Shown: positions 28,737 to 44,758 of the stretch, in pieces | How the letters are laid out: every line of letters begins with the position of its first letter | Numbering within the stretch: the stretch's first letter is position 1 | Source of the DNA: Alphaproteobacteria bacterium | GTDB lineage: Bacteria > Pseudomonadota > Alphaproteobacteria > Rs-D84 | DNA: 64,000 nucleotides | Direction: 5' to 3' | Assembly: GCA_017503725.1 (NCBI GenBank) | Contig: JAFVSL010000003.1 | Location: forward strand, 72,272-136,271 | The notes under the pieces: generated by a model | Told to the model about the DNA's origin: nothing | What the model saw: only the letters and a program-made list of their open reading frames with translations | The model's database searches: none | Translations under genes and position numbers: made by a program

Positions 28737-29159
28737 TTTTTGTATCGAAAAAAATACCGCCGTTGCCGGCGGTATTTCCGAATGCCCCGAAAGGAAGGAA
28801 AGGAGAAAAAGAAATTGGGCATTCTAAAAAAATGTTCTGGGGTCCACGGTCCAGAGGAGAGAGAATGTAGGAGGGAGTCTGAATCCCTGGACCCCACAGA
28901 TGCTTTCGCACCTGGTCATCGGCTTTGCTTCCTTTGACGAATCGAAATATAATACAGATATTTGCTTTTGTCAAGTGTTTTGTCAAAAAATTTTTTAGTA
29001 TTGTCATTTTTTTCTAAAAATTCCTAAAAAAAGCCCGAAATATCCCTAAAAACCTAGGAAATGGTACTTGTTGTATGAATTGGTGCCGGGGCATAAAATT
29101 TGTGGTGTGCTGGAACGTTCTGATGGATTCTGGCGAATATCGAAGAAGGAGAGAGAAAA

Positions 29160-29408
29160 ATGACCCACGAAGATGTATGGCGGGCAATAGAACGCTTTGC
29201 AACCGAACACGGTATGTCTTGTTCTGGATTGGCAAAGTGCAGTGGTTTGGACCCAACGACCTTTAATAAAAGCAAGCGTTGGTCCAAAGAAGGACAGCCC
29301 AGATGGCCGTCGACAAACAGTATTTCCAAAATTTTGTCGTCGACCGGGGCGCGAATCCAAGACTTTACCAAGTATATTGATTCGCCCCAGGATTCTGGAC
29401 GCGACTAA
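29160..29408 (+). CDS. small helix-turn-helix DNA-binding protein (phage-repressor-like N-domain)
   Basis: WRAIERFATEHGMSCSGLAKCSGLDPTTFNKSKRW HTH pattern; strong RBS GAAGGAGAGAGAAAAATG. Confidence 0.55.
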   Translation: MTHEDVWRAIERFATEHGMSCSGLAKCSGLDPTTFNKSKRWSKEGQPRWPSTNSISKILSSTGARIQDFTKYIDSPQDSGRD

Positions 29409-29490: not shown

Positions 29491-29928
29491 ATGGGGTATT
29501 GTATCTATATGCTATCGGGAATAAGAATCTTTTCAGACGATCAAATCTGGCGGCAAATTTTGTCCGAATTAAACGCCACGGTATTGGATGCGCCCACGGT
29601 AACGGATGTTGATATGGCAAATCTGGATATCTCGGCCCCGATCCATCCAATGGAATTAAAGGCGCGAATACTGTCGGCGACGGATAATTCGCGTTTGTTG
29701 GGCCAGATTTTTGGCACGCCAACAACGTTACCGTATATTCAGGGGAAATTGGTAATCGCACTTTATAAAAGTGGCGGTATGTCATCATCAGATTTGAAAC
29801 GTGCGCTGGGATATGCGGCGGACACATCTACGCATACGGTGGATACCGCGATTTATCAGTTGCGCCGAAAATTCGGTCGTGATTTTATTGTTACAAATAA
29901 TGGGGTATATAAACTTGGCCGGATATAA
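29491..29928 (+). CDS. hypothetical protein with OmpR/PhoB-type winged-helix C-terminal domain
   Basis: C-terminal THTVDTAIYQLRRKFGRDFIVTNNGVYKLG resembles a trans_reg_C winged helix; start uncertain. Confidence 0.45.
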   Translation: MGYCIYMLSGIRIFSDDQIWRQILSELNATVLDAPTVTDVDMANLDISAPIHPMELKARILSATDNSRLLGQIFGTPTTLPYIQGKLVIALYKSGGMSSSDLKRALGYAADTSTHTVDTAIYQLRRKFGRDFIVTNNGVYKLGRI

Positions 29929-30586
29929 GGTATTTTCTTTTGATAAAATCCCCAGCACCCAGGATGCTGCGCACGAATTAATTGCCAGCGGACACGGGGC
30001 AAATCGTACGGCGGTTGTTGCCCAGGCGCAAAGTGCGGGGCGGGGGCGTCATCGTCGTAAATGGGTATCGCATCACGGAAATTTGTACGTCAGTTTTATT
30101 TACGATTGTGATGTGCGTGATGGGCGCCTGGCGTATGCGGTGGCGGTGGCGGTGGCGGAAACGTTGGCGACATACGGCATCGCGCCAACAATTAAGTGGC
30201 CAAATGATATCTTGATTGATGGCAAAAAGGTTTGTGGAATTTTAATCGAATATTCTGGGCCCTATGTCATTGTGGGAATCGGTATAAATATTCAGACCAA
30301 CCCAACGGTACGCGAATATAAAACGACCAAGTTGGATAATTATACCCCAGGTTTATCGCCAAATGATTTGCTGGGGGAATTGATGCGCAATTTGGATAAA
30401 TGGCGTCGCACAGAATTTTCGGTTGTACGCGCACGCTGGATGCAGTTGGTTGAACATTTAAACAAAGATGTTCTGTACCAGGGGGCACCCGCCGAATTGA
30501 TTGGAATAAATGAAAACGGTGCACTGATTTTACGTCGCGATACACGGTATTTGTTGGTGTATGGTGATGAAATAACAATGCTGTAA
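29900..30586 (+). CDS. birA: biotin--[acetyl-CoA-carboxylase] ligase (class I, no HTH)
   Basis: GRGRHRRKW biotin-binding loop (GRGRRGRxW), KWPND motif; start uncertain (overlaps upstream gene by 29 nt). Confidence 0.75.
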   Translation: MGYINLAGYKVFSFDKIPSTQDAAHELIASGHGANRTAVVAQAQSAGRGRHRRKWVSHHGNLYVSFIYDCDVRDGRLAYAVAVAVAETLATYGIAPTIKWPNDILIDGKKVCGILIEYSGPYVIVGIGINIQTNPTVREYKTTKLDNYTPGLSPNDLLGELMRNLDKWRRTEFSVVRARWMQLVEHLNKDVLYQGAPAELIGINENGALILRRDTRYLLVYGDEITML

Positions 30587-30619
30587 GTGGCGGAATCCTG
30601 CGGGTTTGCAAATATATGC

Positions 30620-30648
30620 TTGACATTTATTTAAAAATATGATATACT
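30620..30648 (+). promoter_or_regulatory. near-consensus sigma70 promoter (TTGACA-17-TATACT)
   Basis: Exact -35 hexamer, 17 nt spacer, TATACT -10; followed within 30 to 90 nt by two intrinsic terminators. Confidence 0.55.
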
Positions 30649-30674
30649 TGACACCATCAAAGACATAAATAATG

Positions 30675-30741
30675 CCCACAACAACTGTTGGGGATTTTTT
30701 TTGTCTGTTTTTTAGCCGCACATTTTTGTGCGGTTTTTTTT
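30675..30741 (+). terminator. tandem intrinsic terminators (CCCACAAC-loop-GTTGGGG-T8, then GCCGCACA-loop-GTGCGG-T8)
   Basis: Two GC hairpins each followed by T8 on the plus strand, lying between promoter and RBS of the hydrolase gene. Confidence 0.6.
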
Positions 30742-30775
30742 ATTTGTCACAAATCATATGGGGGGATTTTCAGAA

Positions 30776-31186
30776 ATGAATCTAAGACTGATAAAGAATC
30801 CAGACGAAACGAAAAAGTTATCATATCAAATTGCGCGTGTTGTTTATGCGGAAACATCCGCATCATCACTGACCGCGGTCGAGGCACTGGTATCAATGAT
30901 AAACAATGCATCACGTGCCAGCGGCAGAAGTTTCGCACAAATAATATCTGATACCGATATGTTTGAATCATTAAATGAAACATCCGTTCGTCACGAAATG
31001 TTATCGGTTCCCCCACTTTCACGCGGATTTCAAATGTGCTTGCGGGTTGTTGGTCGAATGCTGATGGGTGGGTTGCCGGATATGTGTCGTGGTGCAACAC
31101 GCTTTCATCACGGTGATGTAAATCCAGATTGGGCACGTTCACGTGGGTATATATTGGATATTGATGAATTACTGTTTTATTTATAA
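30776..31186 (+). CDS. SleB-like cell-wall hydrolase (Hydrolase_2 family), probable endolysin
   Basis: IARVVYAE...ALVSMINN...FHHGDVNPDWARSRGYI matches the SleB/Hydrolase_2 consensus; followed by holin-like gene. Confidence 0.6.
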   Translation: MNLRLIKNPDETKKLSYQIARVVYAETSASSLTAVEALVSMINNASRASGRSFAQIISDTDMFESLNETSVRHEMLSVPPLSRGFQMCLRVVGRMLMGGLPDMCRGATRFHHGDVNPDWARSRGYILDIDELLFYL

Positions 31187-31199
31187 GTGGAAATAAAAA

Positions 31200-31397
31200 A
31201 TGAACAAGTTTTACAAGGGCGGATTCCTAAGCGGCTATCGAACATATATTATGTCATCGGTTGGAATCTTGTCGGCGATTGCGGCCTATGCGGTCGGGGA
31301 CAGTGATATTTTCATAACACTGCAAAGTATTTTTACATTGGGTGGAATTTTCTTTTTACGCAAATCGAATGAACCAAAGGATAAATCAAATGGATAA
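31200..31397 (+). CDS. holin-like small membrane protein (2 TM)
   Basis: 65 aa, two hydrophobic helices, charged C-terminus, immediately after the hydrolase. Confidence 0.5.
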   Translation: MNKFYKGGFLSGYRTYIMSSVGILSAIAAYAVGDSDIFITLQSIFTLGGIFFLRKSNEPKDKSNG

Positions 31398-32046
31398 AGT
31401 TCCAGAAAAATTTTTAAACGAAGACGGTACATTAAATGCAGATGCATTGATGAAATCTTATTCAGAACTTGAACGCAAAATCGGAACAATGATAACGGTG
31501 CCGACCGATGGGTGTGATGAAAGTGTTCGTGCGCGCTTTAATCGCGCGATTGGTGTGCCGGAAACATCTGATGAATATCCAACAAATGAAATATTTGATG
31601 ATGAAAATTTGAAAAATAAATTTCACGAAATTGGATTAACATCAACCCAGGTTGAAAAAATTTATGATATTGCAAATGAATTTCTTGCACCTGTGATATC
31701 AGATTTATATAACACGCAAAATGAAAAAGATGCACTTGCAGAATTAAAAAACTTTTTCGGTGGAACGGAAAAAATGAATGATGCATTGCGTGCAATAGAT
31801 GCGTTTGGTAAAAAGTTTTTACCCGCCGATGCATTTGATGAACTGTGCTCCTCGCCCCAGGGAATCCAAGGGATTTATCGTATGATGCAATCAATGGAAC
31901 CAAATGTTGAAACCGAAAAAAATGAAATAAAAAATTTAACGGATTCAGATTTACGACGTATGATGCGTGATCCAAAATATTGGCGTGATGGCGATGCAGA
32001 ATACATACGCAAAATAGAAAATGGTTTTAAAAAATTATATTCATAA
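31393..32046 (+). CDS. putative phage scaffolding protein (T7 gp9 position)
   Basis: Acidic helical 218 aa protein immediately upstream of the capsid module; assignment by position and composition only. Confidence 0.4.
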
Positions 32047-32155
32047 GAAAAAAAATTCACTTTCTTCTTTACTAATTTTTGATATTCATATAAAATACCA
32101 AGTAAGAACAAAACAAATTTGTTCTATCCAAAAAATAGAAGAGAAGGAGAGAAAT

Positions 32156-32635
32156 ATGGTCTTTGGCCTGTTCAAAAAATCTGCAAAGAAAGCAGTTGTA
32201 AAACCAGCCGCAAAACCGGTTGCAAAAAAAGAACCTGCAAAGAAAGCGCCAGCAAAGAAAGTTGCTGCAAAAAAGCCAGCTGCAAAACCAGTTGCAAAGA
32301 AAGCACCTGCGAAAAAAGTAGTTGCAAAACCAGTTGCAAAGAAAGCACCTGCAAAAAAAGTAGTTGCAAAACCAGTTGCGAAAAAAGCACCTGCAAAAAA
32401 AGTAGTTGCAAAACCAGTTGCGAAAAAAGCACCAGCGAAAAAAGTAGCGGTTAAAAAACCAGTTGCGAAAAAAGCACCAGCGAAAAAAGTAGCGGTTAAA
32501 AAACCGGTTGCAAAAAAAGCACCTGCGAAAAAAGTAGTTGCAAAACCAGCAGCGAAAAAAGTTGCAGTTAAAAAAGTTGCTGCAAAACCAGTTGCAAAGA
32601 AAGCGTGTGCAAAAAAATGTGCAAAAAAGAAATAA
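32156..32635 (+). CDS. histone H1-like / AlgP-like lysine-alanine-rich repeat protein
   Basis: About 20 tandem [14 protein letters not shown] repeats encoded by 45 nt DNA repeats; RBS GAGAAGGAGAGAAAT. Confidence 0.65.
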
Positions 32636-32853
32636 TATAATTTCTTAACGCTATTAACCCGAACGATTGTTCGGGTTTTTCTTTTGAAAATTTCAGTCAG
32701 ATGAAATATACAGTCTGACTGAATTTTTTATTGCGGACAAGTCTTGCCACCCCGCATTTATTTTATGTTTACGGCGCATTTATTGCATAACCGTTTCATA
32801 AAATCGTCGCGCAAATTGCGCATTTTTCATTTAACCAAACAAAGGAAATAAAT

Positions 32854-33681
32854 ATGTCCGTTTCAATTGATCAGGTCTTCGTAAAGCAATTCGAGGCCGA
32901 TGTTCATTTGGCCTATCAACAGATGGGCACAAAACTGCGTTCAACCGTTCGCAGCAAATCAGGTGTTGTTGGCGCATCTACCACATTCCAAAAGGTTGGT
33001 CGTGGCACCGCCAGCACAAAATCACGTCACGGTATTGTACCGGTAATGAATTTGAACCACGAACCTGTGGAATGTATGTTAACTGATTACTATGCGGGTG
33101 ATTGGGTTGATGCATTGGATGAATTAAAGGTAAATATTGATGAACGCCGTGTTGTTGCGTCTGCTGGTGCGTATGCCCTGGGGCGCAAGACAGACGAATT
33201 GATTATCGATGCAATGAACACATCAACATTGTCTGTTGGTGATTATACAACCGGCTTGACCAAAGATTTGATTTTATCAGCGGTTGAAATTTTAAACACA
33301 AACGATGTCCCAGATGATGGTCGTCGCTTTGCGGTTATTGGCGTACACCAGTGGAATGAACTGTTGTCGATGGATGAATTTGTATCGGCCGATTATGTTG
33401 GTGATGCAAATCCATTGGTAAATGGTTTTGAGGCAAAAAAATGGTTGGGTATTACATGGGTTCTGCATAACGCATTGCCGGTATCCCAAACGAACCGAGA
33501 TTGCTTTATCTATCACGCGTCCAGCGTTGGGCACGCCTGTGGCCAGGAAGTAAAAACAGACATTTCTTGGCACGGTGAACGTGCGGCGCATTTCATCAGC
33601 AACAGTATGTCCCAGGGTGCCGTTTTAATCGACAATGACGGTATCGTTCGTGTCAAATGTTCTGATGCGCCCGCTGCCTAG
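32854..33681 (+). CDS. phage major capsid protein, T7 gp10-like (short form)
   Basis: TKLRSTVRSKSGVVGASTTFQKVGRGTA parallels T7 gp10 TSRHMVRSISSGKSAQFPVLGRTQAAY; 275 aa. Confidence 0.7.
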   Translation: MSVSIDQVFVKQFEADVHLAYQQMGTKLRSTVRSKSGVVGASTTFQKVGRGTASTKSRHGIVPVMNLNHEPVECMLTDYYAGDWVDALDELKVNIDERRVVASAGAYALGRKTDELIIDAMNTSTLSVGDYTTGLTKDLILSAVEILNTNDVPDDGRRFAVIGVHQWNELLSMDEFVSADYVGDANPLVNGFEAKKWLGITWVLHNALPVSQTNRDCFIYHASSVGHACGQEVKTDISWHGERAAHFISNSMSQGAVLIDNDGIVRVKCSDAPAA

Positions 33682-33719
33682 GTGTAAAAAACAACCACTT
33701 TAACCAAAGGATAAATCTT

Positions 33720-33953
33720 ATGGCATTTCAAAATAAAAATCTGTCGGTGATTGCGTATGCAAATGGCTTTACATTGTGGCATTATGCATCTGCAACAGAA
33801 ACTATTGCGACGATTTCTGCGACCGGCTTTTTCAATGATGTTAAAACATTGATGAATATTGGTGATGTTGTAATTATCAACGCGTCTGATAACACCGCAA
33901 TCAAGAAAATAAACATCACGGCCAGCAACGTCACAACCGGTGCATTGGCATAA
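33720..33953 (+). CDS. hypothetical small protein in capsid-tail module
   Basis: 77 aa ORF with RBS AAGGATAAAT; function unknown. Confidence 0.4.
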   Translation: MAFQNKNLSVIAYANGFTLWHYASATETIATISATGFFNDVKTLMNIGDVVIINASDNTAIKKINITASNVTTGALA

Positions 33954-34026
33954 TAATTTATTATCGTCAAATGGTGGTGCAATTTTGCACCACCAATATT
34001 TTTTATTAACAACAGTGGGGGCAATT

Positions 34027-34545
34027 ATGCTTACAAAAATAGATTTATGTTCAATGGCGCTATTAAAACTGGGGGAACAACCAATTCAGTCTTTCAGTGA
34101 CGATACCGCCACCGCACAGTTGGCACGAACCTTATTTGATCCCATAACAGATGCATTGATTGCGTCGCATCCGTGGCGTTTTGCAACCCGTCAATTAACA
34201 TTGACCAAAAATTCAGATGGTGATTTCCTGATTCCATCAGATGTTTTACGGGTACTGAAATCGGGCGGTGATATTGTTGGTAACAAGATTGTTGCACCAA
34301 CAGATAACCTGACAATAACGGCCTGTACGCGTGTTGGGGTTGATATGTTTCCGGGCTATTTTGTGTCATTGGTGGCGACAAAATTGGCGATGGAATTTTG
34401 TATCCCGCTTTCTGGTGACCAGACCGTGTTCAGAATGCTGGCGGCGCTTTATGAATCAGAATTACAGTCTGCAAAATTCATCGACAGCACAACCGCACCC
34501 GGTGCAAAAATAGACAATTTTTCGTTAATAAATGCACGGTTTTAA
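34027..34545 (+). CDS. tail tubular protein A, T7 gp11-like
   Basis: LLKLGEQPIQSFSDDTATAQLARTLFD...SHPWRF parallels T7 gp11 ILASIGEPPVSTLEGDA...RGWTF. Confidence 0.65.
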   Translation: MLTKIDLCSMALLKLGEQPIQSFSDDTATAQLARTLFDPITDALIASHPWRFATRQLTLTKNSDGDFLIPSDVLRVLKSGGDIVGNKIVAPTDNLTITACTRVGVDMFPGYFVSLVATKLAMEFCIPLSGDQTVFRMLAALYESELQSAKFIDSTTAPGAKIDNFSLINARF

Positions 34546-36272
34546 TGGGGGGCAAAATGGCAAATTTTATTAAAACACAGAATTCTTTTGCCCACGGTGT
34601 GGTGTCATCTGAGTTTTTTACGCGTGATGATATTAACGGATTGTCGTGCCTTGAAAATATGGATGTTTTGCCGGGGGGCGGTCTGACGCGTCGTCGCGGA
34701 TTAGCACATATTGCGAATTTACCGGGTGTTGCACGCCTGGTGCCATTTTCTGTATCGGAAACAGAAAACTATGTCTTGGCAATAACATCGGTGCATATAA
34801 TTATTTATTCTGGTACGCAGATGATGGGCGACTTGTTTGCGCCCTGGGGGGCGGACGATTTGTCGCGCCTGCAATACGCCCAGCGTTTTGACACAATGAT
34901 ATTTGTGCACCCAGATTATCGTCCGCAAATTTTGAAAAAAACCGAAACAGGCTTTGAATTGGGTGACTTTATATTTGCGCGCAATGATGCCGATATGTCG
35001 ATGAATATTCCGTTTATGCGGTTCGAGGATACGTCTGATATAAAAATTTCAGTCAGCACCAGTGACCGAGGCAACAACTATGCTAAATTCACGACCAGTT
35101 CAGATTTCTGGACCCCTGAATATGTGCGAACACGCTTTATGCTGTTGGACCGTCAGTGGATAATTGATGAATACATCAGTCCGACCGAGGTTATCGCATA
35201 TGTCAACGGTACATACACCGCGCCCGGCGCGCCGGTAACCGATTGGTTTGAATCCGCGTTCAGCACCCCGCGTGGCTGGCCGTGCAGTATAACATTTCAC
35301 CAAGATCGATTGGTTTTTGGTGGTTCGCGTTCCTATCCGGCGGGCGTATGGATGTCCCGTGTTGGTCAACATAAAAACTTTAACGTTGGCACCGGTCTGG
35401 ATGACGAAGCAATTTTTATAACCCTGCTGTCCCAGCAGCGACAACAAATTTGTACCGTGGTCAGTGGCGATAATCTTCAAATTCTGACCACTGATGGCGA
35501 ATGGGCGATTTCCAGCAAACCATTAACCCCATCGGTCGTTGATATAAAACAGCACACGTCCGTTGGATCTTGTGCATCAAGATATTTACCACCCCAGAAG
35601 ATAGAAGACGCCACCATATTCGTGTCCAAGACAATGCGTGATATTCGCGAATTGTCTTTGGATGATTTGGGTGAAAATTATAACGCAACTGATTTATGCG
35701 CATTTGCCAAGCATTTGATGACATCGCCGGTGGATATGGCGTACAACGATGCAACCCGGCAATTATTCGTGGTCCAATCAGACGGTAATATGGCTGTCTT
35801 GAACCAGAATGGGGCATTGGGGATATCGGCGTGGGCCGAATACAAAACATATGGCAAATTTATATCTGTAACGGTTGTAGACGGGAAAACATATGTCGTA
35901 TCGCTGCGTGATGATGCGTATAACATTGAATGTTTTTCAGATTCTGTGATGCGGGATGCAGATAAATATGATTTTGCATACCAGGCGGCGTCTTTGCCAT
36001 TTCGTGTGTCTCATCATAATGTGTCGCGTTTGCGCATTCGCCGGGTGTCACTGCGCCTGCTGAATACTAAATCAGTATTTATAAATGGCGCGCGTGCCAC
36101 ATTGCCAAATGAAATTTATTCAGAAAATCATCCGGGTTATTCGGGTGACGTGTCTGTAAATTTGCTGGGTGGATGCCTATCGTGTTTGTCGCCATATTGG
36201 ACCATACACGGAAACGAGCCCCAGCCAATAACGGTTTTATCTGTTTGTGTGTCCGGCGGATACAGTGTTTAA
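34545..36272 (+). CDS. tail tubular protein B, T7 gp12-like (shortened)
   Basis: N-terminus FIKTQNSFAHGVVSSEFFTRDDINGLSCLENMDVLPGGGLTRRRG parallels T7 gp12 IKNLKGGISQQPDILRYPDQ...ETEGLQKRP. Confidence 0.65.
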   Translation: MGGKMANFIKTQNSFAHGVVSSEFFTRDDINGLSCLENMDVLPGGGLTRRRGLAHIANLPGVARLVPFSVSETENYVLAITSVHIIIYSGTQMMGDLFAPWGADDLSRLQYAQRFDTMIFVHPDYRPQILKKTETGFELGDFIFARNDADMSMNIPFMRFEDTSDIKISVSTSDRGNNYAKFTTSSDFWTPEYVRTRFMLLDRQWIIDEYISPTEVIAYVNGTYTAPGAPVTDWFESAFSTPRGWPCSITFHQDRLVFGGSRSYPAGVWMSRVGQHKNFNVGTGLDDEAIFITLLSQQRQQICTVVSGDNLQILTTDGEWAISSKPLTPSVVDIKQHTSVGSCASRYLPPQKIEDATIFVSKTMRDIRELSLDDLGENYNATDLCAFAKHLMTSPVDMAYNDATRQLFVVQSDGNMAVLNQNGALGISAWAEYKTYGKFISVTVVDGKTYVVSLRDDAYNIECFSDSVMRDADKYDFAYQAASLPFRVSHHNVSRLRIRRVSLRLLNTKSVFINGARATLPNEIYSENHPGYSGDVSVNLLGGCLSCLSPYWTIHGNEPQPITVLSVCVSGGYSV

Positions 36273-36297
36273 TCAATACAACAAAAAGGAATTTATT

Positions 36298-36645
36298 ATG
36301 GGACAACTTGTATCAGATGTTAGTGAAATCTTGGATTACAAAGATGAAAAGAAACAGGCAAAATCTGCCCGTCAGGAAATCTTGAAACAGATGGCCGCAG
36401 ACGATGCCGAAAAAACAAACCTGGTCAAAAAGGTGTTGGCGACCCAGCGTGCAAAATATGGCGCATCGGGCGTGTCGTCGCGCGGACTCAGCCAGGGGGC
36501 GGTCCTTGCGCGGTTGAAATCAGAAACCGAACAACCATACACTGAAAAACGCAACGCGAATTTGAAAAAATTAAAATCAACACGTGCCAAGAAACCTAAT
36601 TTATTAAAAACAATATTGTCGCGCTTTGATGACTTAGTCGGCTAG
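36298..36645 (+). CDS. hypothetical basic virion/packaging-associated protein
   Basis: 116 aa K/R-rich ORF between tail tube B and fiber genes. Confidence 0.4.
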   Translation: MGQLVSDVSEILDYKDEKKQAKSARQEILKQMAADDAEKTNLVKKVLATQRAKYGASGVSSRGLSQGAVLARLKSETEQPYTEKRNANLKKLKSTRAKKPNLLKTILSRFDDLVG

Positions 36646-36661
36646 GAATAGGGGGATAATT

Positions 36662-37210
36662 ATGCATAAAATCTCTTACATAGCAGATGGTGTCACGACT
36701 GAATTTGAATTTGCATTTCCATTTTTTCAGGCGGCAGATATCCGCGTCGCCAAGAACGAGGTCATTTTAACCACTGATGAATATTCAGTTGTTGAAAATG
36801 TATCTTTTGATGGTGGACGTGTTGTGTTTAATGTTGCGCCCACCGCGGACACACGTATTGATATCTATCGCGTTGTCGCATTGTCGCGCGTCATAGATTA
36901 TCAGCCAACCGCAAAAATAGACCCAGAACATCTAAATTCGGACTTTAATTTTTTAATCGAGGCCCTAAAAGACCTTCACGCACCCGATGTTGATATCGAG
37001 GCCTGGCGTAACACGCACACAAACGTGGTGAATTTCTTGGAATATACGAACAGTCTAATCCAAGATAAATTAACCGGTGGCGGTGTGCTGGGGATTTATC
37101 GCAATTTAATAGCGGTGCTGGATAACGCATTACCAAATCTGATTAACGACTATGGATACATTACGGATTCGGCCGACGACGCCACGTGCGACGATTACGG
37201 ATTATTGTAA
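36662..37210 (+). CDS. tail fiber N-terminal (tail-attachment) domain only, T7 gp17-like
   Basis: YIADGVTTEFEFAFPFFQAADIRV parallels T7 gp17 YQLDGSNRDFNIPFEYLARKFVVV; only 182 aa, no distal receptor-binding domain. Confidence 0.55.
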   Translation: MHKISYIADGVTTEFEFAFPFFQAADIRVAKNEVILTTDEYSVVENVSFDGGRVVFNVAPTADTRIDIYRVVALSRVIDYQPTAKIDPEHLNSDFNFLIEALKDLHAPDVDIEAWRNTHTNVVNFLEYTNSLIQDKLTGGGVLGIYRNLIAVLDNALPNLINDYGYITDSADDATCDDYGLL

Positions 37211-37214
37211 TTTT

Positions 37215-37793
37215 ATGGATACGTGGAACCATACCCTGGGGCAGACAACACCCACACACCACCGTAAAATAATGGAATTTCTGGTGGATGTTCTGGGGGA
37301 CGATATGCACCGGGGACTGCTGATGGCGTTTCGACATTCGGGCAAATCGACCGTTGTCGGGATTTTTGCAGCGTGCACATTGTACCTGTTCCCGTGTACG
37401 CGCATACTGATTTTGTCGGCGCACACGACATTGGCATCGCGAATGGTCGGGCATATCAGACATATCTTGGAAAATCATCCCTGGTGTGCGGATTTATTGC
37501 CCACATCGCGTCGTGATTGGTCGTCGGGACACATTACTATCAACCGACCAATAGGCATACGCGAACCATCTGTAATATGCCAGGGCATCCACGGCAACAT
37601 CACCGGAATGCGCGCAGATTTAATAATCTGCGATGACGTAGAGGTGCCAAACACATCAAACACCCCGCAAAAGCGTGAAAATCTGCGTGAAAGATTACGT
37701 GAACTGGATTTTATCTTGTCGCCCACGGGCACGATGATTTACATCGGTACACCACACACAATGGATACGATTTATCGTACCAGCGATGACTAG
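37215..37793 (+). CDS. terminase large subunit, N-terminal ATPase part (split gene)
   Basis: Walker A FRHSGKST, Walker B LIICDDVE, coupling motif IYIGTPH; ends at a stop without a nuclease domain. Confidence 0.65.
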   Translation: MDTWNHTLGQTTPTHHRKIMEFLVDVLGDDMHRGLLMAFRHSGKSTVVGIFAACTLYLFPCTRILILSAHTTLASRMVGHIRHILENHPWCADLLPTSRRDWSSGHITINRPIGIREPSVICQGIHGNITGMRADLIICDDVEVPNTSNTPQKRENLRERLRELDFILSPTGTMIYIGTPHTMDTIYRTSDD

Positions 37794-38446
37794 GCGTTAT
37801 CTTCGGCTTTTACCGAACTGATAAACGTGCGCAACCGCCCCAACAGTTCGTTTCCTGCATCCCCAAACATCGGCAGGTATGTTTCATATTCTGGCATATC
37901 GGCCTGGATTTCTGCGCGTGCACGTTCATCCAGTGGTGCGTTAATAATTTGATTCGCCGTATCCCACAATTGATACGCGCGATATGTTTTTGTAACGACC
38001 GCCCATTGATTTTGCATATCCGGATGCTTGTCCAGTGCATCGTGAATTGCGTTTGCCCATTCTTCGCCAAATCTGCGTACCACATTAAGGCCACGTATAC
38101 GATTCAGGCCGTCTGGATCGGGGGTAAAAGAATTTAACACAGATTGTAATTCAGAAATATCTTTCTGGGACAAAATGGTGTCGGTCACACTGGATTGTGT
38201 CATCAATCCACCATATGGAATCAATTCTGGTTCAATGGAATCCATTGGTGTTTTGCCACTGCGCAGATTTTCAATATGCCGGATAAGCATTTTACCGGTT
38301 GGCATTTCGCGCAACTCTTTGATTACGTCATCGGTGGCCTCGTCTATAAAGACTGGGTTAATCGCAGACCATCCGCCAACGATAACGTGTTCCTGGCGAT
38401 AAAGGTTTAACAATCTTTGTGCCGTGGCGGCGATACGTGCTTTCAT
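37790..38446 (-). CDS. hypothetical protein
   Basis: 218 aa ORF in the block interrupting the terminase. Confidence 0.45.
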   Translation of the reverse strand: MKARIAATAQRLLNLYRQEHVIVGGWSAINPVFIDEATDDVIKELREMPTGKMLIRHIENLRSGKTPMDSIEPELIPYGGLMTQSSVTDTILSQKDISELQSVLNSFTPDPDGLNRIRGLNVVRRFGEEWANAIHDALDKHPDMQNQWAVVTKTYRAYQLWDTANQIINAPLDERARAEIQADMPEYETYLPMFGDAGNELLGRLRTFISSVKAEDNA

Positions 38447-38480
38447 AATGTGCCTCTCTCTCCGGTATTATGTTGATGAA

Positions 38481-39488
38481 TTATTCCATCACAATCATAA
38501 CAACTTTGTGCATTGTTTGCGCGTTAATTTTTTCTTCTGGGCTGGATATTTGACCGTATATTTTCCCTTTGGAATCTTGACGTACACTAACAATTTGCGC
38601 GTTGACGGTTGTTTCTGAATCCAATGCATCAAAGTCCGTATCAATGCATACCGCCAAATCGCCCGCCACAATTGGTGCATCTACATCGGCAAATACGTAT
38701 GATTTTTCAGGGATAAATCCGCCCAAGCGCTTTGAATTTGGCATAACCGCGTAAATACCACTGCGGCCCTCTAATGACATTGGGGCAACAATCATCGTTT
38801 TGTCAGATTTTTTAAACGCAATTGATTTACCAGACGGCATACCGAACACCGGGACCAGTTTTTTGCGTGCACTGTCATACAATTTTGCGCCATACAAGCC
38901 GCCACTCATATCAATGCCAGATAATGGGTTGCCCGGTTCCAGTACGGATTTAACGCGTTCCTTGACCTTGTTAATCTGTTTGTTTAATTCGCCGCTTTTA
39001 TACAGGGTTGCGATTTTATCAAACATACTTTCGACCGTCATCGCGAACGATTGTGCCAATGGTTCAATTTCATTTTCATAGATTTCGCGTTGTCCAACCT
39101 CGATTTTATGATACACAGACAATGTCATACCGGCATCTTTGGCGGCACGTGCGATAGTTTTTCCAGATTGCTGGCGAATTTTGCGCAGACCACTGCCGAA
39201 AATTTTCAGGCCACCATCTTCGTTATCATTCAGACGGCGTTTGATTTCGGTTTGCCATTGTTCTGCAACCTCGTCAGATTCTTTGATGAAAATGTCGGAC
39301 AGTTTGCACCCCAAGATATTACAGATATTCAGCAACTGTTTCTGGTTCAAGCGGCGTACACCCTTTTCAATTTTTGAAACCGCGGACAGGGACAAACCCG
39401 CGCGTCGCGCCAGTTCCGTCATCTTCATCCCATTTTTCAGGCGGATGTTTCTGATATTATTTGGAAAAATAATTTCTTCTTGGGCCAT
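38481..39488 (-). CDS. XRE-family transcriptional regulator with two HTH domains and CI/LexA-like C-terminal domain
   Basis: Two Cro/C1-type HTH segments (MTELARRAGLSLSAVSKIEKG; IARAAKDAGMTLSVYHKIEVG) plus C-terminal beta-rich domain. Confidence 0.6.
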   Translation of the reverse strand: MAQEEIIFPNNIRNIRLKNGMKMTELARRAGLSLSAVSKIEKGVRRLNQKQLLNICNILGCKLSDIFIKESDEVAEQWQTEIKRRLNDNEDGGLKIFGSGLRKIRQQSGKTIARAAKDAGMTLSVYHKIEVGQREIYENEIEPLAQSFAMTVESMFDKIATLYKSGELNKQINKVKERVKSVLEPGNPLSGIDMSGGLYGAKLYDSARKKLVPVFGMPSGKSIAFKKSDKTMIVAPMSLEGRSGIYAVMPNSKRLGGFIPEKSYVFADVDAPIVAGDLAVCIDTDFDALDSETTVNAQIVSVRQDSKGKIYGQISSPEEKINAQTMHKVVMIVME

Positions 39489-39563
39489 TGTGCAACTCCT
39501 TAAAAACTATAATCTTGACAAAATAATAGTCAATTTTTAAGGCTTGCGCAAGTAAATAATCAC

Positions 39564-41120
39564 TTACAGTGGCATATCATCCGGGATTGCATCGATATCA
39601 ATTGGCGTTGGTGAAAATTCAGATCCATCCAATGGTATGCTGGCGGTTGGTTGTGATGTGACGTTTTCACCACGTGTGTCAAATTCATCCGGCAGATTGT
39701 CGAACAAACTGTAATCGCCAAAGAATGCGGTGCGTACGGTTTCCGGACGTCCGTGACGGTTTTTTCCGATGATAATATCGGCCTTGCCACGGGATTGTTC
39801 GTAACGTTTTTGCCACGATTCCACCATTGCGGAATTTGTTGTGTTTGAAATTCTTTCTGATGGATTACGGTTCGCCAGATAGTATTCTTCGCGGTACGTA
39901 AACATAACAATGTCGGCGTCTTGTTCAATAGATCCAGATTCACGCAAGTCCGCCAATTGTGGACGTTTGTCATCGCGCTGTTCAACGCTACGTGACAACT
40001 GTGACAGGGCAATTACCGGCACATCCAATTCCTTGGCCAGCATTTTTAGCCCTCGTGTAATTTCGGAAATTTCTTGGACACGGTTGTCGCTGCGCTTGCC
40101 ACCGGGGGACGTCATCAATTGCAGATAGTCCACCACAATCAACGCAATTCCACCATATTTCCGTGCCAGGCGTCTTGCACGTGTGCGCATCATCGGTACC
40201 GACATACCCGGCGTATCATCAATGCACAGTGGAATCTTGCTGATTGCGTCGGCGTATTGTGTCATTTTAAGCATATCTTCATCCGTCAGGTTTCCTTCAC
40301 GCATTGCGGATGCGGGCACCTTGGACTGGGATGATAAAACACGTGCCGCTAATTGGGAATGCGACATTTCAAGACTGAAAAATACGACGGCGCCCTTGTA
40401 ATTTTTATTGGCCGTGCCATAGTGTATTGCATTTGCCGCATTAAACGCGATATTCATCGCCAACGTGGTTTTACCCATCGCCGGACGACCCGCTACGATA
40501 ATTAAATCCGAATGGTGCAGACCACTGATTGATTTATCCAGCGCCGTCAGTCCCGTTGTCAGACCCGATAATTGCCCGTCGGCCTTGTACGCGGTTTCGG
40601 CTTCCCTTAATGCGGCCTGTAATGCGGTTGCGATTGAAACAACGTCACGTTCGGACGAACCCGTGGTTGCCATATCGAATAATTTCTGTTCGGCAACCTC
40701 TATTTGTCGATTAACTGGATTGTCCAGGTCTTCGACAAATGCGCCATCCATAATATCCTGGGCCAGGTTGATTAACTGTCGTCTTTGTGCATGTTCGTAT
40801 ACGATGCGACCATATTGTTCAACGTTAACAACGGTTGCCCCCGCACCCGATAATTGGGTCAGGTAATCCACACCACCCACCGATTCCAAGACCCCCTGTT
40901 GGTCCAGATAGTTTTTAGCGGTAATAATATCGAACGGGATACCGGCGGCAAATTGACGTTCCGCCAGTTTATAAATTTCCTGGTGTGCGGGATGCGAAAA
41001 GTGTTCCGCATTCAAGAATTCTGACACACGTTCCAACGCGCGATTATTCATCAACACCGCGGCCAGTACGGCCTGTTCTGCTTCCAGATTGGTTGGCAAA
41101 GTCTTAGGGGTAAAATCCAT
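39564..41120 (-). CDS. dnaB: replicative DNA helicase DnaB
   Basis: DnaB N-domain NLEAEQAVLAAVLMN, Walker A AGRPAMGKTT, RecA-like core; start set at MDFTPKTL; acidic C-terminal tail of about 60 aa. Confidence 0.8.
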   Translation of the reverse strand: MDFTPKTLPTNLEAEQAVLAAVLMNNRALERVSEFLNAEHFSHPAHQEIYKLAERQFAAGIPFDIITAKNYLDQQGVLESVGGVDYLTQLSGAGATVVNVEQYGRIVYEHAQRRQLINLAQDIMDGAFVEDLDNPVNRQIEVAEQKLFDMATTGSSERDVVSIATALQAALREAETAYKADGQLSGLTTGLTALDKSISGLHHSDLIIVAGRPAMGKTTLAMNIAFNAANAIHYGTANKNYKGAVVFFSLEMSHSQLAARVLSSQSKVPASAMREGNLTDEDMLKMTQYADAISKIPLCIDDTPGMSVPMMRTRARRLARKYGGIALIVVDYLQLMTSPGGKRSDNRVQEISEITRGLKMLAKELDVPVIALSQLSRSVEQRDDKRPQLADLRESGSIEQDADIVMFTYREEYYLANRNPSERISNTTNSAMVESWQKRYEQSRGKADIIIGKNRHGRPETVRTAFFGDYSLFDNLPDEFDTRGENVTSQPTASIPLDGSEFSPTPIDIDAIPDDMPL

Positions 41121-41145
41121 GTCAAAATCCTTTTCCTTAACGCCA

Positions 41146-41985
41146 ATGGTATATGAAAAAAATGCTTTTTCAATGCCTTTTTTATCGGGATATAAAATAT
41201 TGAAAATTCCGATAGTTGACGCCAATGGTACGCCCGCGTGGCCGGAACTTTTCCCGATTGAAAAGGTTGCCCAGATGCGGCAAATCGTCGGCCCCCGGCA
41301 TTTTTCAGCACAAATGATGCTGGAATTTGTGCCACCTGAACGTATTCGTCTGGACCCGGGGCAAATACATTTCTATGAATATATGCTGGATATTCATTCG
41401 GCACGTCTGGGGCCGCATTTGATAACGGGTGCGTCTGTGTATTGGGATCCGTCCACCGGCCGCCATAAATCAGACCACAGTGTTTGTGTTCTGATATATC
41501 GTGATGATAAAAATCATAATGTTTTTATACACGATGTTATGTATATGACGGTTTCTGATACCGAAACCCACCCCTTGAATGCCCAGTGTGAACGGGTGAT
41601 TGATTTTATGCACCGATACGGTATGCGCCGAATAACAATCGAGACAAATGGACTGGGCAATGCATTGCCGGAAATAATGCGCGATGTGGCGGTGCGTCGG
41701 GGTCAAAACATATACGTAAATAAAATCACTAATAACCGGAACAAGTCCGACAGAATCTTGGATGCGATTGAACCCCTGCTGACCTCGGGGCACCTGTATG
41801 CCAATATGCGTGTGCAACATACGCCACTTTTGTCGGAAATGTTGGGTTGGTCACCCGTTGGCGGGGTGGGGCACGATGACGGCTTGGACGCGATTGCGGG
41901 TGCGATTGCGCAAACGCCGATTGTCCTGCGTCCGTCCGGGGGGATGTCCCGTCCAGTTTATGCAAATACAAATTTCACAATATAA
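41146..41985 (+). CDS. terminase large subunit, C-terminal nuclease part (split gene)
   Basis: RNaseH-like nuclease motifs VYWDPSTGRHKSDHSVCVLI and GHDDGLDAIAGAI; start uncertain (41119-41173). Confidence 0.65.
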   Translation: MVYEKNAFSMPFLSGYKILKIPIVDANGTPAWPELFPIEKVAQMRQIVGPRHFSAQMMLEFVPPERIRLDPGQIHFYEYMLDIHSARLGPHLITGASVYWDPSTGRHKSDHSVCVLIYRDDKNHNVFIHDVMYMTVSDTETHPLNAQCERVIDFMHRYGMRRITIETNGLGNALPEIMRDVAVRRGQNIYVNKITNNRNKSDRILDAIEPLLTSGHLYANMRVQHTPLLSEMLGWSPVGGVGHDDGLDAIAGAIAQTPIVLRPSGGMSRPVYANTNFTI

Positions 41986-42011
41986 AACAACACAAACAAA
42001 AAGGATAAAAT

Positions 42012-43241
42012 ATGCAATCTAATTTATTGCAAATGTACAAACGTGCGCTGGATATGCGCGATCCGTGGTTGCGTCGTTGGGCGGATGCACGCCGGTATAC
42101 AATGCCGGAAACCGATGACGACACGGCAACGCTGTTTGATGCAACCGCAATGGATGCGGTTGATAATCTGGCGGCATCACTTTATACATTATTGACCCCA
42201 CCGGAATCATTGTGGCTGAACCTGGTCCCGGAAAGTGATTTGTCACCCGATGCAGGCACCGCGACGGATGTGTTGCGTGCAAACTTAAATGATTCTAATT
42301 TTTATACGACCGTGCACCAATGTTATTTGGATTTGGTCACGTTGGGAACAGCGTGTTTGTTTATGGCGGAAAATCCGATTGGTGCGTCATCTGCATTTTC
42401 GTTCACCGCGATTCCAATGTCAGATATTGCAATTTTACCAAACGCGGTATTTCACACCACATCAATGTCCGCGCGTGATGCGATGGAAAAATATCCGACA
42501 TGGACGGTGCCGGCAAACCTGCGTGATACAATAAAACAAGACCCCGACACCCCAATTAAACTGGTACAGAGTTTGGTTGGAACTGAATTTACAGCGTGGT
42601 TGGATGCCGGTGGCGACATTGAAAACAACATTGTTGCAACGGGAACATTTGAAACAAATCCGTATTTGATTTTCCGTTGGTCGGTGACGTCCGGCGAAAT
42701 TTATGGGCGTGGCCCGGTCTTGCGTGCGTTGCCAGATATTAAAACCGCGAACAAGGTTGTGGAATTAGTCTTGAAAAACGCGACAATATCCGTATCTGGT
42801 ATCTGGATGGCGGACGATGACGGCGTGATAAATTTGAATAACATCAGCCTGACGCCGGGTGCGATTATACCAAAGGCGGTTGGTTCGTCGGGCCTGACAC
42901 CATTGACCAGTGGTGCAAACTTTGATGTGTCCCAGATTATTTTAAAAGATCTGCGGGAACGCATCCGTCACGCATTGTTGGCGGACCGGTTGGGCCTGTT
43001 AAGCGAAAAAGAAATGACCGCAACCGAGATTATGGCCCGTAATTCCGATATGATGCGAATCTTGGGTGCGACCTATGGTCGATTACTGCACGAATTTATA
43101 AGGCCATTGTGCGAACGCGGTTTGCAGATTTTATCACGCCGTGGTGTGATTGAACCAATAACCCTGCACGGGGATGCAGAATTAAAATACATTGCACCAA
43201 TTGCACAAATGGTTGCGCTGGAATCAATTGCGGGGGTGTAA
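42012..43241 (+). CDS. phage portal (head-to-tail connector) protein, T7 gp8-like (shortened)
   Basis: MYKRALDMRDPWLRRWADARRYTMPE...AVDNLAASLYTLLTPPESLWLNL parallels T7 gp8 YERLKNDRAPYETRAQNCAQYTIP...GLNNLASKLMLALFPMQTWMRL. Confidence 0.65.
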   Translation: MQSNLLQMYKRALDMRDPWLRRWADARRYTMPETDDDTATLFDATAMDAVDNLAASLYTLLTPPESLWLNLVPESDLSPDAGTATDVLRANLNDSNFYTTVHQCYLDLVTLGTACLFMAENPIGASSAFSFTAIPMSDIAILPNAVFHTTSMSARDAMEKYPTWTVPANLRDTIKQDPDTPIKLVQSLVGTEFTAWLDAGGDIENNIVATGTFETNPYLIFRWSVTSGEIYGRGPVLRALPDIKTANKVVELVLKNATISVSGIWMADDDGVINLNNISLTPGAIIPKAVGSSGLTPLTSGANFDVSQIILKDLRERIRHALLADRLGLLSEKEMTATEIMARNSDMMRILGATYGRLLHEFIRPLCERGLQILSRRGVIEPITLHGDAELKYIAPIAQMVALESIAGV

Positions 43242-43244
43242 TAA

Positions 43245-43439
43245 ATGTCGGAAAATATCGCACAAGATTTTGCGCGCACATTTTGCACCCCATCGGGTGC
43301 GCGTGTGATTGAGCATTTACGCAAAATAACTATTGAACGGGTACTGGGGGCGAACGCGACGGACGCAGAATTGCGCGGGGTTGAGGCCCAACGTGCCCTT
43401 GTTCACCAAATTGAAAATATGATAGAACGGGGGAAATAA
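43245..43439 (+). CDS. hypothetical small protein
   Basis: 64 aa ORF tightly packed after portal gene. Confidence 0.4.
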   Translation: MSENIAQDFARTFCTPSGARVIEHLRKITIERVLGANATDAELRGVEAQRALVHQIENMIERGK

Positions 43440-43441
43440 AA

Positions 43442-43699
43442 ATGACGACGCAACCCAGTGCCATTGGCATCCTAGATTTTTTACGCGACAGTTGGTTTTT
43501 AATCGCCTTTATTGCGGGGTGTGTCTACTGGGTTGCGCGCCAGGATTCGTCCGTTGCGGAACTGGAACGTGTTGATGCCCGTATAACATCGCTTGAAAAT
43601 CGCACAACGGTCTTGGAAACGGGTATCGGCCAAATTCAAATAAAAATAGACGATATCAAAGAAGACCTGAACCTGATAAAAGGCGCAGTTATTAAATAA
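43442..43699 (+). CDS. hypothetical TM + coiled-coil protein (holin/spanin-like)
   Basis: One TM helix followed by heptad coiled coil; 85 aa. Confidence 0.4.
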   Translation: MTTQPSAIGILDFLRDSWFLIAFIAGCVYWVARQDSSVAELERVDARITSLENRTTVLETGIGQIQIKIDDIKEDLNLIKGAVIK

Positions 43700-43715
43700 A
43701 AGTTTATCTAAGCGA

Positions 43716-43966
43716 TTGCGTAAGTGGAAACATTTGGTTATAATGTGATTGTTATGGTGACTTTGCCATAATGGGGTGTAGAAACCCGACTTACGCGTCG
43801 AAACATAAATAAGCGGAAATATGCCGGACGGTTGTGTTTTGATGAAATAAAACTCCTGAACTTTATTGGTCAGGAGGGTTGCGAATATATTGAATAAGCA
43901 CACAATTCGTAAGATTGTTTCTAACCTCCTGACCACTTGAATTTATTCAGTGGTTTTTGTTTTTTC
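43716..43966 (+). promoter_or_regulatory. conserved promoter + structured 5' leader with terminator (copy 2 of 3)
   Basis: -35 TTGCGT (43716-21), 17 nt spacer, -10 TATAAT (43739-44); ATGGGGTGTAGAAACCC box; hairpins CTCCTGA/GTCAGGAG and GGTCAGGAGGGTT/AACCTCCTGACC; terminator ACCACT-loop-AGTGGT + T-run. Confidence 0.6.
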
Positions 43967-43994
43967 GCGAAAAACAATGAAAGGAGTTGAACAA

Positions 43995-44432
43995 ATGAAA
44001 AAACTTTTAACCTTAACCGCGCTTGGTGCGATTCTTGCCGCACCGGCAATCGCCGCAACCCAATGCGTTAAGCAGGTTGATGCAAATACCCCCTGTACGA
44101 ATTTAACCAATGGAAATTCGGATTGGATAATTCAGTGTGGCGGGCAAAGATACAGAGGGGTCATTTTCCTTGGTGAATATCAACCTGAGGGCAGCACCGC
44201 AGATAGTCTGGAAACGGGTGTTGCAGATGACCCACATAGGGCGGATGATGGCTGTTGGTGTAAAATGACATATCCGGTGGAATCAAAATGGGTTTCGGTT
44301 GGGTATACGCCGGGTTCTGGTGGATTTTTTACGTGTTCCCAACGTTGTTCTTGGGGTGACACCGATTTGGGGCTTTTTTACAGCAAAGATCTTGTAAATG
44401 ATTACTATTTACCAAATTTAATCTCTGACTAG
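43995..44432 (+). CDS. secreted cysteine-rich protein, family A (CWCKMTYPVESKW)
   Basis: Signal peptide MKKLLTLTALGAILAAPAIA; paralog of 2979-3449. Confidence 0.65.
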   Translation: MKKLLTLTALGAILAAPAIAATQCVKQVDANTPCTNLTNGNSDWIIQCGGQRYRGVIFLGEYQPEGSTADSLETGVADDPHRADDGCWCKMTYPVESKWVSVGYTPGSGGFFTCSQRCSWGDTDLGLFYSKDLVNDYYLPNLISD

Positions 44433-44445
44433 GTAGGGGGGGAAA

Positions 44446-44715
44446 ATGAAAAAAATAGCATTTATAATTGCGTTTATGCCGATGTGTGCATATTCCGTCG
44501 CCCCATCCACCAGTTGCCCCACAGGATACGTAACCGTTACGCGTTCTAATTTTATTATGGCGACTGTGTGTCCAACGGGATATGTGGCGGCACGAAAGTT
44601 AAATTCTTGCCTGAACAATGCAACGTATGATTGTTGGCTGTATACGCCGGCCGGCGTCAGTTACACCGACGGTCTCGGCACGTATGAATTTACCGATGTG
44701 TGCCCAATGTCATAA
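44446..44715 (+). CDS. secreted cysteine-rich small protein, family B
   Basis: Paralog of 2710-2979 (both 89 aa; shared CPTGY...TYEFTDVC). Confidence 0.65.
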   Translation: MKKIAFIIAFMPMCAYSVAPSTSCPTGYVTVTRSNFIMATVCPTGYVAARKLNSCLNNATYDCWLYTPAGVSYTDGLGTYEFTDVCPMS

Positions 44716-44758
44716 AAAATCCCGCCATCGGCGGGATTTTTTTCTTTTCCTTTCTCTA

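Follow-up and report, generated by a model that had tools for sequence, protein, structure and literature searches.

The window is the whole stretch analysed here, 64,000 nt of contig JAFVSL010000003.1 (assembly GCA_017503725.1) from an alphaproteobacterium of the order Rs-D84. It contains a 160-bp noncoding cassette between the host gene birA and a gene for a cell wall hydrolase. The cassette carries a near-consensus sigma70 promoter, a short leader, two tandem terminators (T1 and T2), and a ribosome-binding site (RBS). The hydrolase gene is the first of a phage-derived operon. On balance, we read the cassette as a late promoter gated by terminators. Its features and the two flanking genes are as follows.

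29900 to 30586, + strand: birA, biotin-protein ligase, the upstream host gene (TIGR00121, E = 7.5e-45; PF03099)
30620 to 30625, + strand: -35 hexamer TTGACA; alignment columns 1 to 5 are invariant in 81 species (2.0 bits)
30640 to 30648, + strand: extended -10 element TGaTATACT (TG at 30640-30641, TATACT at 30643-30648), with a 17-nt spacer to the -35 hexamer
30655 to 30656, + strand: predicted transcription start at a conserved pyrimidine-purine step (CA), 7 to 8 nt after the -10 element, within a conserved CAT
30656 to 30674, + strand: unstructured leader of 19 nt, consensus ATMAAnAGnAnARATTnTRT, continuing into the TCC at the start of the T1 stem
30668 to 30673, + strand: -10-like hexamer AATAAT (family consensus nATTnT at +13 to +18)
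30675 to 30702, + strand: T1, hairpin CCC(A)CAAC/AACT/GTTGGGG at 30675-30693, an A, and U8 at 30695-30702 (RNAfold, conservation)
30702 to 30713, + strand: 3' arm of a putative, optional outer helix around T1: TGTCT, pairing with AGACA at 30661-30665, and then T6; only some of the species have such a helix
30714 to 30741, + strand: T2, hairpin AGCCGCACA/TTTT/TGTGCGGTT at 30714-30735 and a U8 run to 30741 (terminator scan, RNAfold)
30760 to 30766, + strand: Shine-Dalgarno-like GGGGGGA of the hydrolase gene; a purine-rich block lies 6 to 12 nt before the ATG across loci
30776 to 31186, + strand: SleB-like cell wall (endolysin-like) hydrolase of 136 aa, the first gene of the operon (phrog_938 endolysin, E = 5.7e-8), with its ATG at 30776

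The main comparison set consisted of 81 species-level loci, the window and 80 others, with ±10 kb around each. Ten more divergent contigs (hydrolase identity, 49 to 56%) and about 48 metagenome contigs brought the total to about 140 loci. The window comes from Candidatus Enterousia, and this lineage, like the wider order Rs-D84, consists of uncultured gut Alphaproteobacteria with genomes of <1 Mb (PMC12306168). Relatives of the hydrolase were found in 214 species-representative genomes, and the named ones are Candidatus Enterousia or unclassified gut Alphaproteobacteria. The hydrolase family contains at least 120 clusters, all of about 136 aa. Its match to PF07486 is weak in the window and was precomputed on homologues. 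The birA gene call (228 aa) was taken from locus L001; 34 nt separate its stop codon from the -35 hexamer.

The order promoter, T1, T2, and RBS is invariant. It was found in 81 of 81 species-level loci, always directly upstream of the hydrolase gene, and in all 10 of the more divergent contigs. The first-pass annotation had placed a TTGACA-17-TATACT promoter at 30620-30648, two hairpin-plus-T8 terminators at 30675-30702 and 30715-30741, and the hydrolase RBS near 30762. The promoter is present there and is conserved at the same place in 80 of 80 other loci, as TTGAC(T/A)-17-TAnnnT with an extended -10 TG before the hydrolase gene. Both terminators are also present. A strict double-terminator scan passes 79 of the 81 species, and the remaining loci, L030 and L066, visibly carry both. 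The RBS corresponds to the GGGGGGA block listed above. Because the order of promoter and then terminators is conserved, selection appears to act on the termination of transcripts from this promoter.

Copy number was examined with nhmmer and a covariance model of the leader and T1 over 1.48 Mb of loci. One full-length copy of the cassette was retrieved per locus. No second cassette was found before the operon of terL-C (the nuclease half of the terminase large subunit) and the portal gene, elsewhere in the loci, or in other gene contexts of the metagenome contigs. A metagenome scan for the promoter and start motif returned 80 contigs. Matches with a T1 continue into the hydrolase gene in 44 cases and lie on contigs that end before any gene in 2. 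The 32 matches without a T1 show no hydrolase and look like unrelated promoters. Conservation confirms that the occurrence of the cassette is far beyond chance.

An unrelated, well-conserved promoter family was seen among the metagenome matches that lack the hydrolase. Its pattern is TTGACTTCCyCyGAAACTTsTGrTACAAT-N6-CATGAACAGC, and it was retrieved from L101, L110, L112, L115, L116, L122, L125, L138, L158, L167, and L170. It has an ATG at the predicted start site. It looks like the promoter of a leaderless mRNA in other, GC-richer organisms.

The cassette promoter scored 11 of 12 and was the top + strand match in a 10-kb scan. The region has no excess of generic promoter-like matches (25 versus 25.3 expected), so function could not be proven from the single window alone. 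Within the 64 kb there is one occurrence of the specific motif CTTGACWTT-N12-16-TGNTANNMT, and 100 shuffles gave none. In most species the -35 hexamer is TTGACT, always preceded by C and always followed by TT. The TG and the TAnnnT of the extended -10 element are invariant or nearly so in the 81-species alignment. The spacer is partly conserved, and it contains the inverted repeat TTGAC-N-GTCAA in 9 of 81 species, or 14 of 81 with a relaxed pattern. A tRNA-Glu gene in the window has a promoter of the same class, TTGACA-17(TG)-TATAAT at 17947-17919. Consensus sigma70 promoters appear to be in use in this organism, as at this tRNA gene. Transcription from the cassette is predicted to begin at about 30655/30656.

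T1 and T2 have the form of intrinsic (Rho-independent) terminators. Each is a GC-rich hairpin directly before a U-tract, and the pairing of the stem is kept across species. A transcript ending at T1 would be about 47 nt long, and one ending at T2 would be about 86 nt long. Across the family, T1 ends at +44 to +54 and T2 ends at +74 to +116. T1 was overlooked by the consensus terminator scan owing to its bulged A and was recovered with RNAfold. RNAalifold on the raw MAFFT alignment gave no structure, as differences in loop length misaligned the 3' arm. A covariance model solved this problem, and the alignment used for T1 covariation was fitted to it. An anchor-based table built without the model gives the same base-pair switches.

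Of the T1 stem cells in the model-based alignment, 90.1% are paired, compared with 77.5% in shuffles. Compensatory changes occur in seven of its eight pairs, for example from G-C to A-U in 28 sequences. There are 88 cells with a double change, compared with 30±4 in shuffles, and none of 500 shuffles reached 88. The covariation score is 0.33 and falls to ≤0.06 when the 3' partner is slid. The median free energy of the T1 stem across species is -8.4 kcal/mol. T2 has a stem of 9 bp with 5 GC pairs and a 4-nt loop, and its median free energy is -13.1 kcal/mol. The sequence of the T2 stem is wholly different between species, yet it always forms a perfect GC-rich hairpin followed by a U-run.

The gap from T2 to the hydrolase ATG is about 35 nt in the window. 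The family median is 21 nt (range, 4 to 40 nt), and only the RBS is conserved within it. This is too short for a sigma70 promoter and a 5' untranslated region, so a separate promoter for the operon does not fit. With no other conserved promoter and with T2 this close to the ATG, every transcript of the operon must pass both terminators.

The hairpins might instead be the 3' terminators of birA, insulating the operon against host read-through, with the promoter incidental. It is true that birA ends 34 nt before the -35 hexamer and has no other terminator. However, the promoter precedes the terminators in all loci, and not the reverse, and the distance between the start site and T1 is fixed. The L064 locus has the birA/orf82 block inverted, and L054 has a different gene upstream in place of birA. 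Both keep the cassette with its two terminators before the hydrolase gene, so the cassette belongs to the operon and not to birA. We consider the birA explanation very improbable, and it was rejected after the L054/L064 comparison.

The leader between the start site and T1 has a fixed length. In 77 of 81 species, the CC of the T1 stem lies 20 nt from the C of CAT. Positions A+14, T+15, T+16, and T+18 are conserved (1.1 to 1.9 bits). No covarying column pairs or alternative pairings were found inside the leader in the 81-species alignment. Because its sequence is conserved without covariation, the leader is probably read as single-stranded RNA or as DNA. One possibility is that nATTnT is a candidate sigma70-dependent pause element and possibly a loading site. 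Elements of this -10-like kind induce a sigma70-dependent pause at lambdoid PR' promoters.

The conserved leader also allows the unit to be read as an autonomous small RNA (sRNA) gene. In that case the promoter-to-T1 unit would serve to produce a trans-acting RNA in abundance, about 47 nt long (86 nt past T1), the single-stranded conserved 5' 19 nt would be its seed, and gating would be secondary. The architecture is the classic one for an sRNA gene, with a strong promoter of its own, an unstructured and conserved 5' region, and a terminator hairpin of its own. The leader bases are conserved in sequence and not by pairing, and the length of the leader is fixed. Any firing of the promoter must yield a short RNA of about 47 nt. 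Against this, the unit never occurs away from the hydrolase operon in the roughly 140 loci. No recurrent site complementary to the leader was found within ±12 kb in the 81 loci, and there is no Rfam match. In the whole window, Rfam returned no family at its gathering score and only sub-threshold, terminator-driven matches at 30500-30850 and 32600-32900. Furthermore, an sRNA gene would need neither a second terminator nor the absence of another operon promoter. We regard a primary sRNA function as unlikely, and it is compatible with gating rather than exclusive of it.

A cis-acting attenuator with an alternative fold or a leader peptide (riboswitch, T-box, ribonucleic antiterminator [RAT], or trp type) would also place a terminator after a short leader. 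In the window, a frame of 35 codons begins with an ATG at 30672, crosses T1 and T2, and closes with ATGA where the hydrolase gene starts. However, openness hardly differs among the three frames (145 of 243 open), and there is no RBS. In 38 of 81 species no frame initiated in the leader extends to the hydrolase start (19 have no start codon in the leader, and 19 have a short open reading frame [ORF] only). The leader is only 19 nt long, it has no covarying alternative pairing, and it has no match in Rfam. The leader-peptide and riboswitch-like explanations were rejected after these frame, covariation, and Rfam tests, and we give them hardly any credence.

An outer helix could form only in transcripts that have passed T1, by pairing of the leader's 5' end with the bases that follow the T1 U-tract. 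It exists in the window and in a subset of loci (for example, L013, L057, L067, L079, and L081), and the match is a perfect 7 to 8 bp in some species. Examples are AAACAGGA/TCCTGTTT and AAATAGA/TCTATTT. As a general part of the cassette it was rejected. Over all species, the mean scores are 4.69 versus 4.64, the tail test is marginal (6 of 500), and the pairing is indistinguishable from an A-rich/T-rich background.

Downstream of the cassette lies a cluster of 14 kb (30620-44742). It occupies the same chromosomal place, between birA and rpsD, in L007 to L085. Its further features, and one gene upstream of it, are as follows.

29160 to 29408, + strand: orf82, weak Cro/CI-type helix-turn-helix (HTH) with the sequence DPTTFNKSKR, two genes upstream of the cassette
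32156 to 32635, + strand: Lys/Ala-rich, histone H1/Hc2-like protein between the scaffold and the capsid (PF07382, E = 1.4e-12)
32656 to 32821, + strand: capsid-leader terminator cluster, three hairpins with Ts
32656 to 32677, + strand: GC hairpin with Ts, in the capsid leader
32685 to 32730, + strand: long palindrome TTCAGTCAGA-N7-10-TCTGACTGAA with Ts, in the capsid leader, with compensatory changes between species
32808 to 32821, + strand: last hairpin with Ts, just before the capsid RBS
33972 to 33995, + strand: terminator after capsid-orf77, present in 47 of 63 species
37152 to 37793, + strand: terL-N, the ATPase half of the terminase large subunit (phrog_38 positions 272 to 459)
37790 to 41120, - strand: opposite-strand segment of 3.3 kb with orf218, a double-HTH regulator of 335 aa, and DnaB
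41146 to 41985, + strand: terL-C, the nuclease half (phrog_38 positions 468 to 702)
44714 to 44742, + strand: strong terminator (13-bp stem) at the distal end of the phage-like region, ahead of rpsD

After the hydrolase gene, the + strand encodes a 65-aa membrane protein, a T7 gp9-like scaffold, and the Lys/Ala-rich protein, which may condense DNA or be an internal virion protein. The major capsid protein follows (PF19821, E = 3e-73) and then a protein of 77 aa. Next are tail tube proteins A and B, the N-terminal domain of a fibre, and terL-N. The stop codons of terL-N and orf218 overlap (CTAG). The divergent starts of dnaB and terL-C are 25 nt apart, which leaves no promoter space. Where the dnaB segment interrupts terL, its borders show no convincing repeats. 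Beyond terL-C, the cluster encodes the portal, a Bbp19-like protein, an XhlA-like protein of 85 aa, and two small ORFs before the host gene rpsD. It contains no integrase, replication module, or RNA polymerase.

The gene order, including the split terminase, is kept in essentially all 80 species. Capsid identity across species is 81 to 100%, compared with 56 to 97% for BirA. The capsid protein, encoded 2 kb downstream of the cassette, has identical copies on 22 metagenome contigs. The nearest capsid from a cultured phage is that of Pelagibacter phage EXVC031P, at 45% identity. Phage-type gene content, the lack of integrase and replication genes, shared synteny, and capsid conservation together point to a domesticated remnant like a gene transfer agent (GTA). 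The cluster looks like a vertically inherited remnant of a T7/pelagiphage-like podovirus. It combines phage-derived structural and packaging genes, a fixed locus, vertical inheritance, and no replication or integration functions, as expected of a GTA. The lysis/structural operon proposed in the first-pass annotation was borne out by the Pfam and PHROG matches and by the synteny, which show a phage-derived cluster with lysis and structural genes and GTA-like features. The cluster appears to be undescribed and may be a more interesting object than its control element.

Terminators are also conserved inside the cluster. One or more lie between the scaffold and the capsid in 61 of 63 species. The capsid leader (32636-32853) is conserved and folds far better than shuffles (z = -6.5), and it has no Rfam match. 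The promoter scan of the window found no recognisable promoter before the capsid gene. Serial terminators ahead of the most abundant structural gene favour processive antitermination over a simple leak.

The capsid leader carries a GGACAA..GGACCC element. It also carries a hairpin of the form NNGG-C-GCA-loop-TGC-AYAA-CCNN with conserved internal-loop bases. The outer pairs of this hairpin show compensatory changes (ATGG/CCAT, ACGG/CCGT, and GTGG/CCAC).

These internal terminators bear on a simpler scheme, passive attenuation without a dedicated antiterminator. Under it, T1 and T2 would scale down a strong promoter or filter noise, leaving a fixed small leak. The on/off decision would be set at initiation by a repressor or activator such as the Cro/CI-like orf82 or the 335-aa double-HTH protein. 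The moderate stability of T1 suits this scheme, and so do the two conserved HTH regulators that flank or interrupt the cluster. The 335-aa regulator has a conserved palindromic operator of its own, and some cassette promoters contain the TTGAC-N-GTCAA repeat. But at least five or six successive conserved terminators before the tail genes would bring the yield of the capsid, expected to be the most abundant product, near zero. The promoter is also near-consensus in every species without a universally conserved operator, and only 9 of 81 have the candidate operator. Passive attenuation seems to us possible at a low probability.

The candidate regulators were examined individually. The weak HTH protein orf82 is 85 to 100% identical across species in which BirA is only about 65% identical, and it is a candidate regulator of the cluster. 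The orf218 protein has 218 aa and belongs to a family restricted to this clade. Its structural model is helical, with a predicted local distance difference test (pLDDT) score of 77.5. The promoter of the 335-aa double-HTH regulator contains a conserved palindrome, AATTGAC-TAWTATTTT-GTCAAGA (39533-39489, - strand), centred on the -10 element. The palindrome TTGAC-N9-GTCAA surrounds this -10 element in 55 of 64 loci and looks like an autoregulatory operator. A shared operator for this promoter and the cassette promoter was rejected, as the palindrome is present in 55 of 64 of the former but in only 9 of 81 of the latter.

A further difference was observed near orf82. In L002 to L005, at 4941-5903, an ORF of 320 aa is inserted between an rlmD-like gene and orf82. 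Neither the window (compare 28737-29159) nor L001 has it, despite the strains being near-identical.

Antiterminator families were sought with Pfam and PHROG in the cluster ORFs, orf82, and orf218. The part of the genome examined was the 64-kb window and the ±10-kb loci, in which no GafY or GafZ homologues were seen. There is no Q-family gene beside the promoter, where the upstream gene is birA. No antiterminator (Q, AlpA, GafZ, or a NusG paralogue) turned up among the cluster ORFs, so its existence is inferred. The first-pass annotation had suggested either an autonomous sRNA of about 50 to 90 nt, discussed above, or a silent cassette under antiterminator control. The cassette part of that suggestion stood, given the invariant order, the linkage to the operon, the lack of room for a promoter, and the internal terminators. 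The antiterminator part did not find its counterpart among the cluster ORFs.

Taken together, the region is, in our view, somewhat better explained than not as a late promoter gated by terminators, resembling lambda PR'-tR' and heading a domesticated operon of podovirus type, with read-through probably achieved by a processive antiterminator. The gating step, promoter-proximal terminators ahead of the operon, is well supported by the sequence comparison. The start site and the efficiencies of termination are predicted. The near-consensus sigma70 promoter with its extended -10 element would start RNA at about 30656. By default, polymerase would halt at T1 (about +47), or else at T2 (about +86), and release short abortive RNAs. 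In the few cells that switch the element on, a processive antitermination factor would load at the promoter or at the fixed-length leader. Operon transcripts would have to get past the conserved terminator clusters on either side of the capsid gene as well. The 160-bp spacer would control the hydrolase, the membrane protein, the scaffold, the Lys/Ala-rich protein, the capsid, tail tubes A and B, the fibre, and the ATPase half of the terminase.

Several observations weigh against this terminator-gated late promoter. No match to Q, AlpA, GafZ, or NusG was found in the cluster ORFs, orf82, or orf218, and no PDB structure matches the fold of the orf218 model. The inverted repeat in the promoter spacer, which resembles a Q-binding element, occurs in only 9 to 14 of 81 species. 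A T1 of moderate stability makes a factor-free leak conceivable. An operator, or the seed of a trans-acting sRNA, would account for the conserved leader bases just as well.

A bolder form of the idea makes the cassette the single entry point of a new processive-antitermination system that drives an undescribed podovirus-type GTA across Rs-D84. We consider this improbable. Modified polymerase would transcribe about 14 kb, starting at 30656 and ending at 44714-44742, and would pass six or more internal terminators. Its antisense passage over the dnaB/HTH/orf218 segment would silence the helicase and the regulator. It would go on to terL-C, the portal, and the holin-like genes, where there is no room for a separate promoter.

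The closest known arrangement is lambda PR'/6S/tR'/Q, with phage 82, phage 21 Q, and Pseudomonas aeruginosa AlpA. As there, the cassette has a strong sigma70 promoter that by its sequence needs no activator. An intrinsic terminator lies a short distance downstream, so a short RNA would be the default product (in lambda, the 6S RNA at tR'). Lysis and structural genes lie beyond the terminator, and further terminators lie inside the operon. The initially transcribed region has a -10-like hexamer where the lambdoid sigma-dependent pause element sits. The differences are also clear. Here no Q/AlpA homologue is encoded nearby, and host birA is upstream. Two tandem terminators lie within 90 nt, compared with one at +194 in lambda. 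The spacer repeat that resembles a Q-binding element is confined to a minority of species. The cluster is vertically inherited in a genome of <1 Mb and is not a lambdoid prophage.

Lambda Q, AlpA, and GafZ, the antiterminator of the Caulobacter GTA, load at a promoter, and terminators are then bypassed (PMC11150451). In the Caulobacter crescentus GTA (CcGTA), GafZ is needed to pass a terminator early in the cluster, and its loading site has been proposed to lie between the -35 and -10 elements (PMC11150451). CcGTA, with GafY/IHF and GafZ, shares with the cluster described here an alphaproteobacterial domesticated phage origin, a sigma70-dependent promoter, and an early terminator to be bypassed (PMC11150451). 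Unlike the promoter here, which looks constitutive, that of CcGTA is activator dependent. Its terminator consists of three GC-rich repeats of 150 bp after the first gene, whereas canonical hairpin-plus-U terminators precede the first gene here. CcGTA is of the siphovirus/HK97 type, and the cluster here is of the podovirus type (T7/pelagiphage-like).

Type III toxin-antitoxin systems (ToxIN) and other units made of a promoter, a short RNA, a terminator, and a gene also use one promoter for a short terminated RNA and for read-through into protein genes, with the ratio set by the terminator. In contrast, there are no tandem RNA repeats and no ToxN-like endoribonuclease here, and a virion/lysis operon of about 7 kb lies downstream.

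Among GTAs, the recent description of FpGTA from Faecalibacterium presents it as the first podovirus-like one (PMC12946183). Like RcGTA, BaGTA, CcGTA, Dd1, VSH-1, and FpGTA, the cluster contains head, tail, and packaging genes without replication or integration genes. Like them, it is fixed at one chromosomal locus across a clade and is under purifying selection. Unlike the known GTAs, it has podovirus-type genes in Alphaproteobacteria. Its terminase large subunit is also split into two ORFs by the opposite-strand dnaB/HTH segment.

The cassette is the most conserved noncoding feature of the cluster and is an obvious experimental handle. It predicts exact RNA ends, with the 5' end at 30655/6 and 3' ends at about 30700 and about 30740. 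The 160 bp could serve as a reporter for finding the read-through factor. If such a factor exists, control of the Q/AlpA/GafZ type would extend to a podovirus-derived GTA-like element in a host not yet grown. These bacteria, with genomes of <1 Mb, still keep a phage-derived particle cluster of 14 kb, and its capsid is more conserved than a housekeeping gene.

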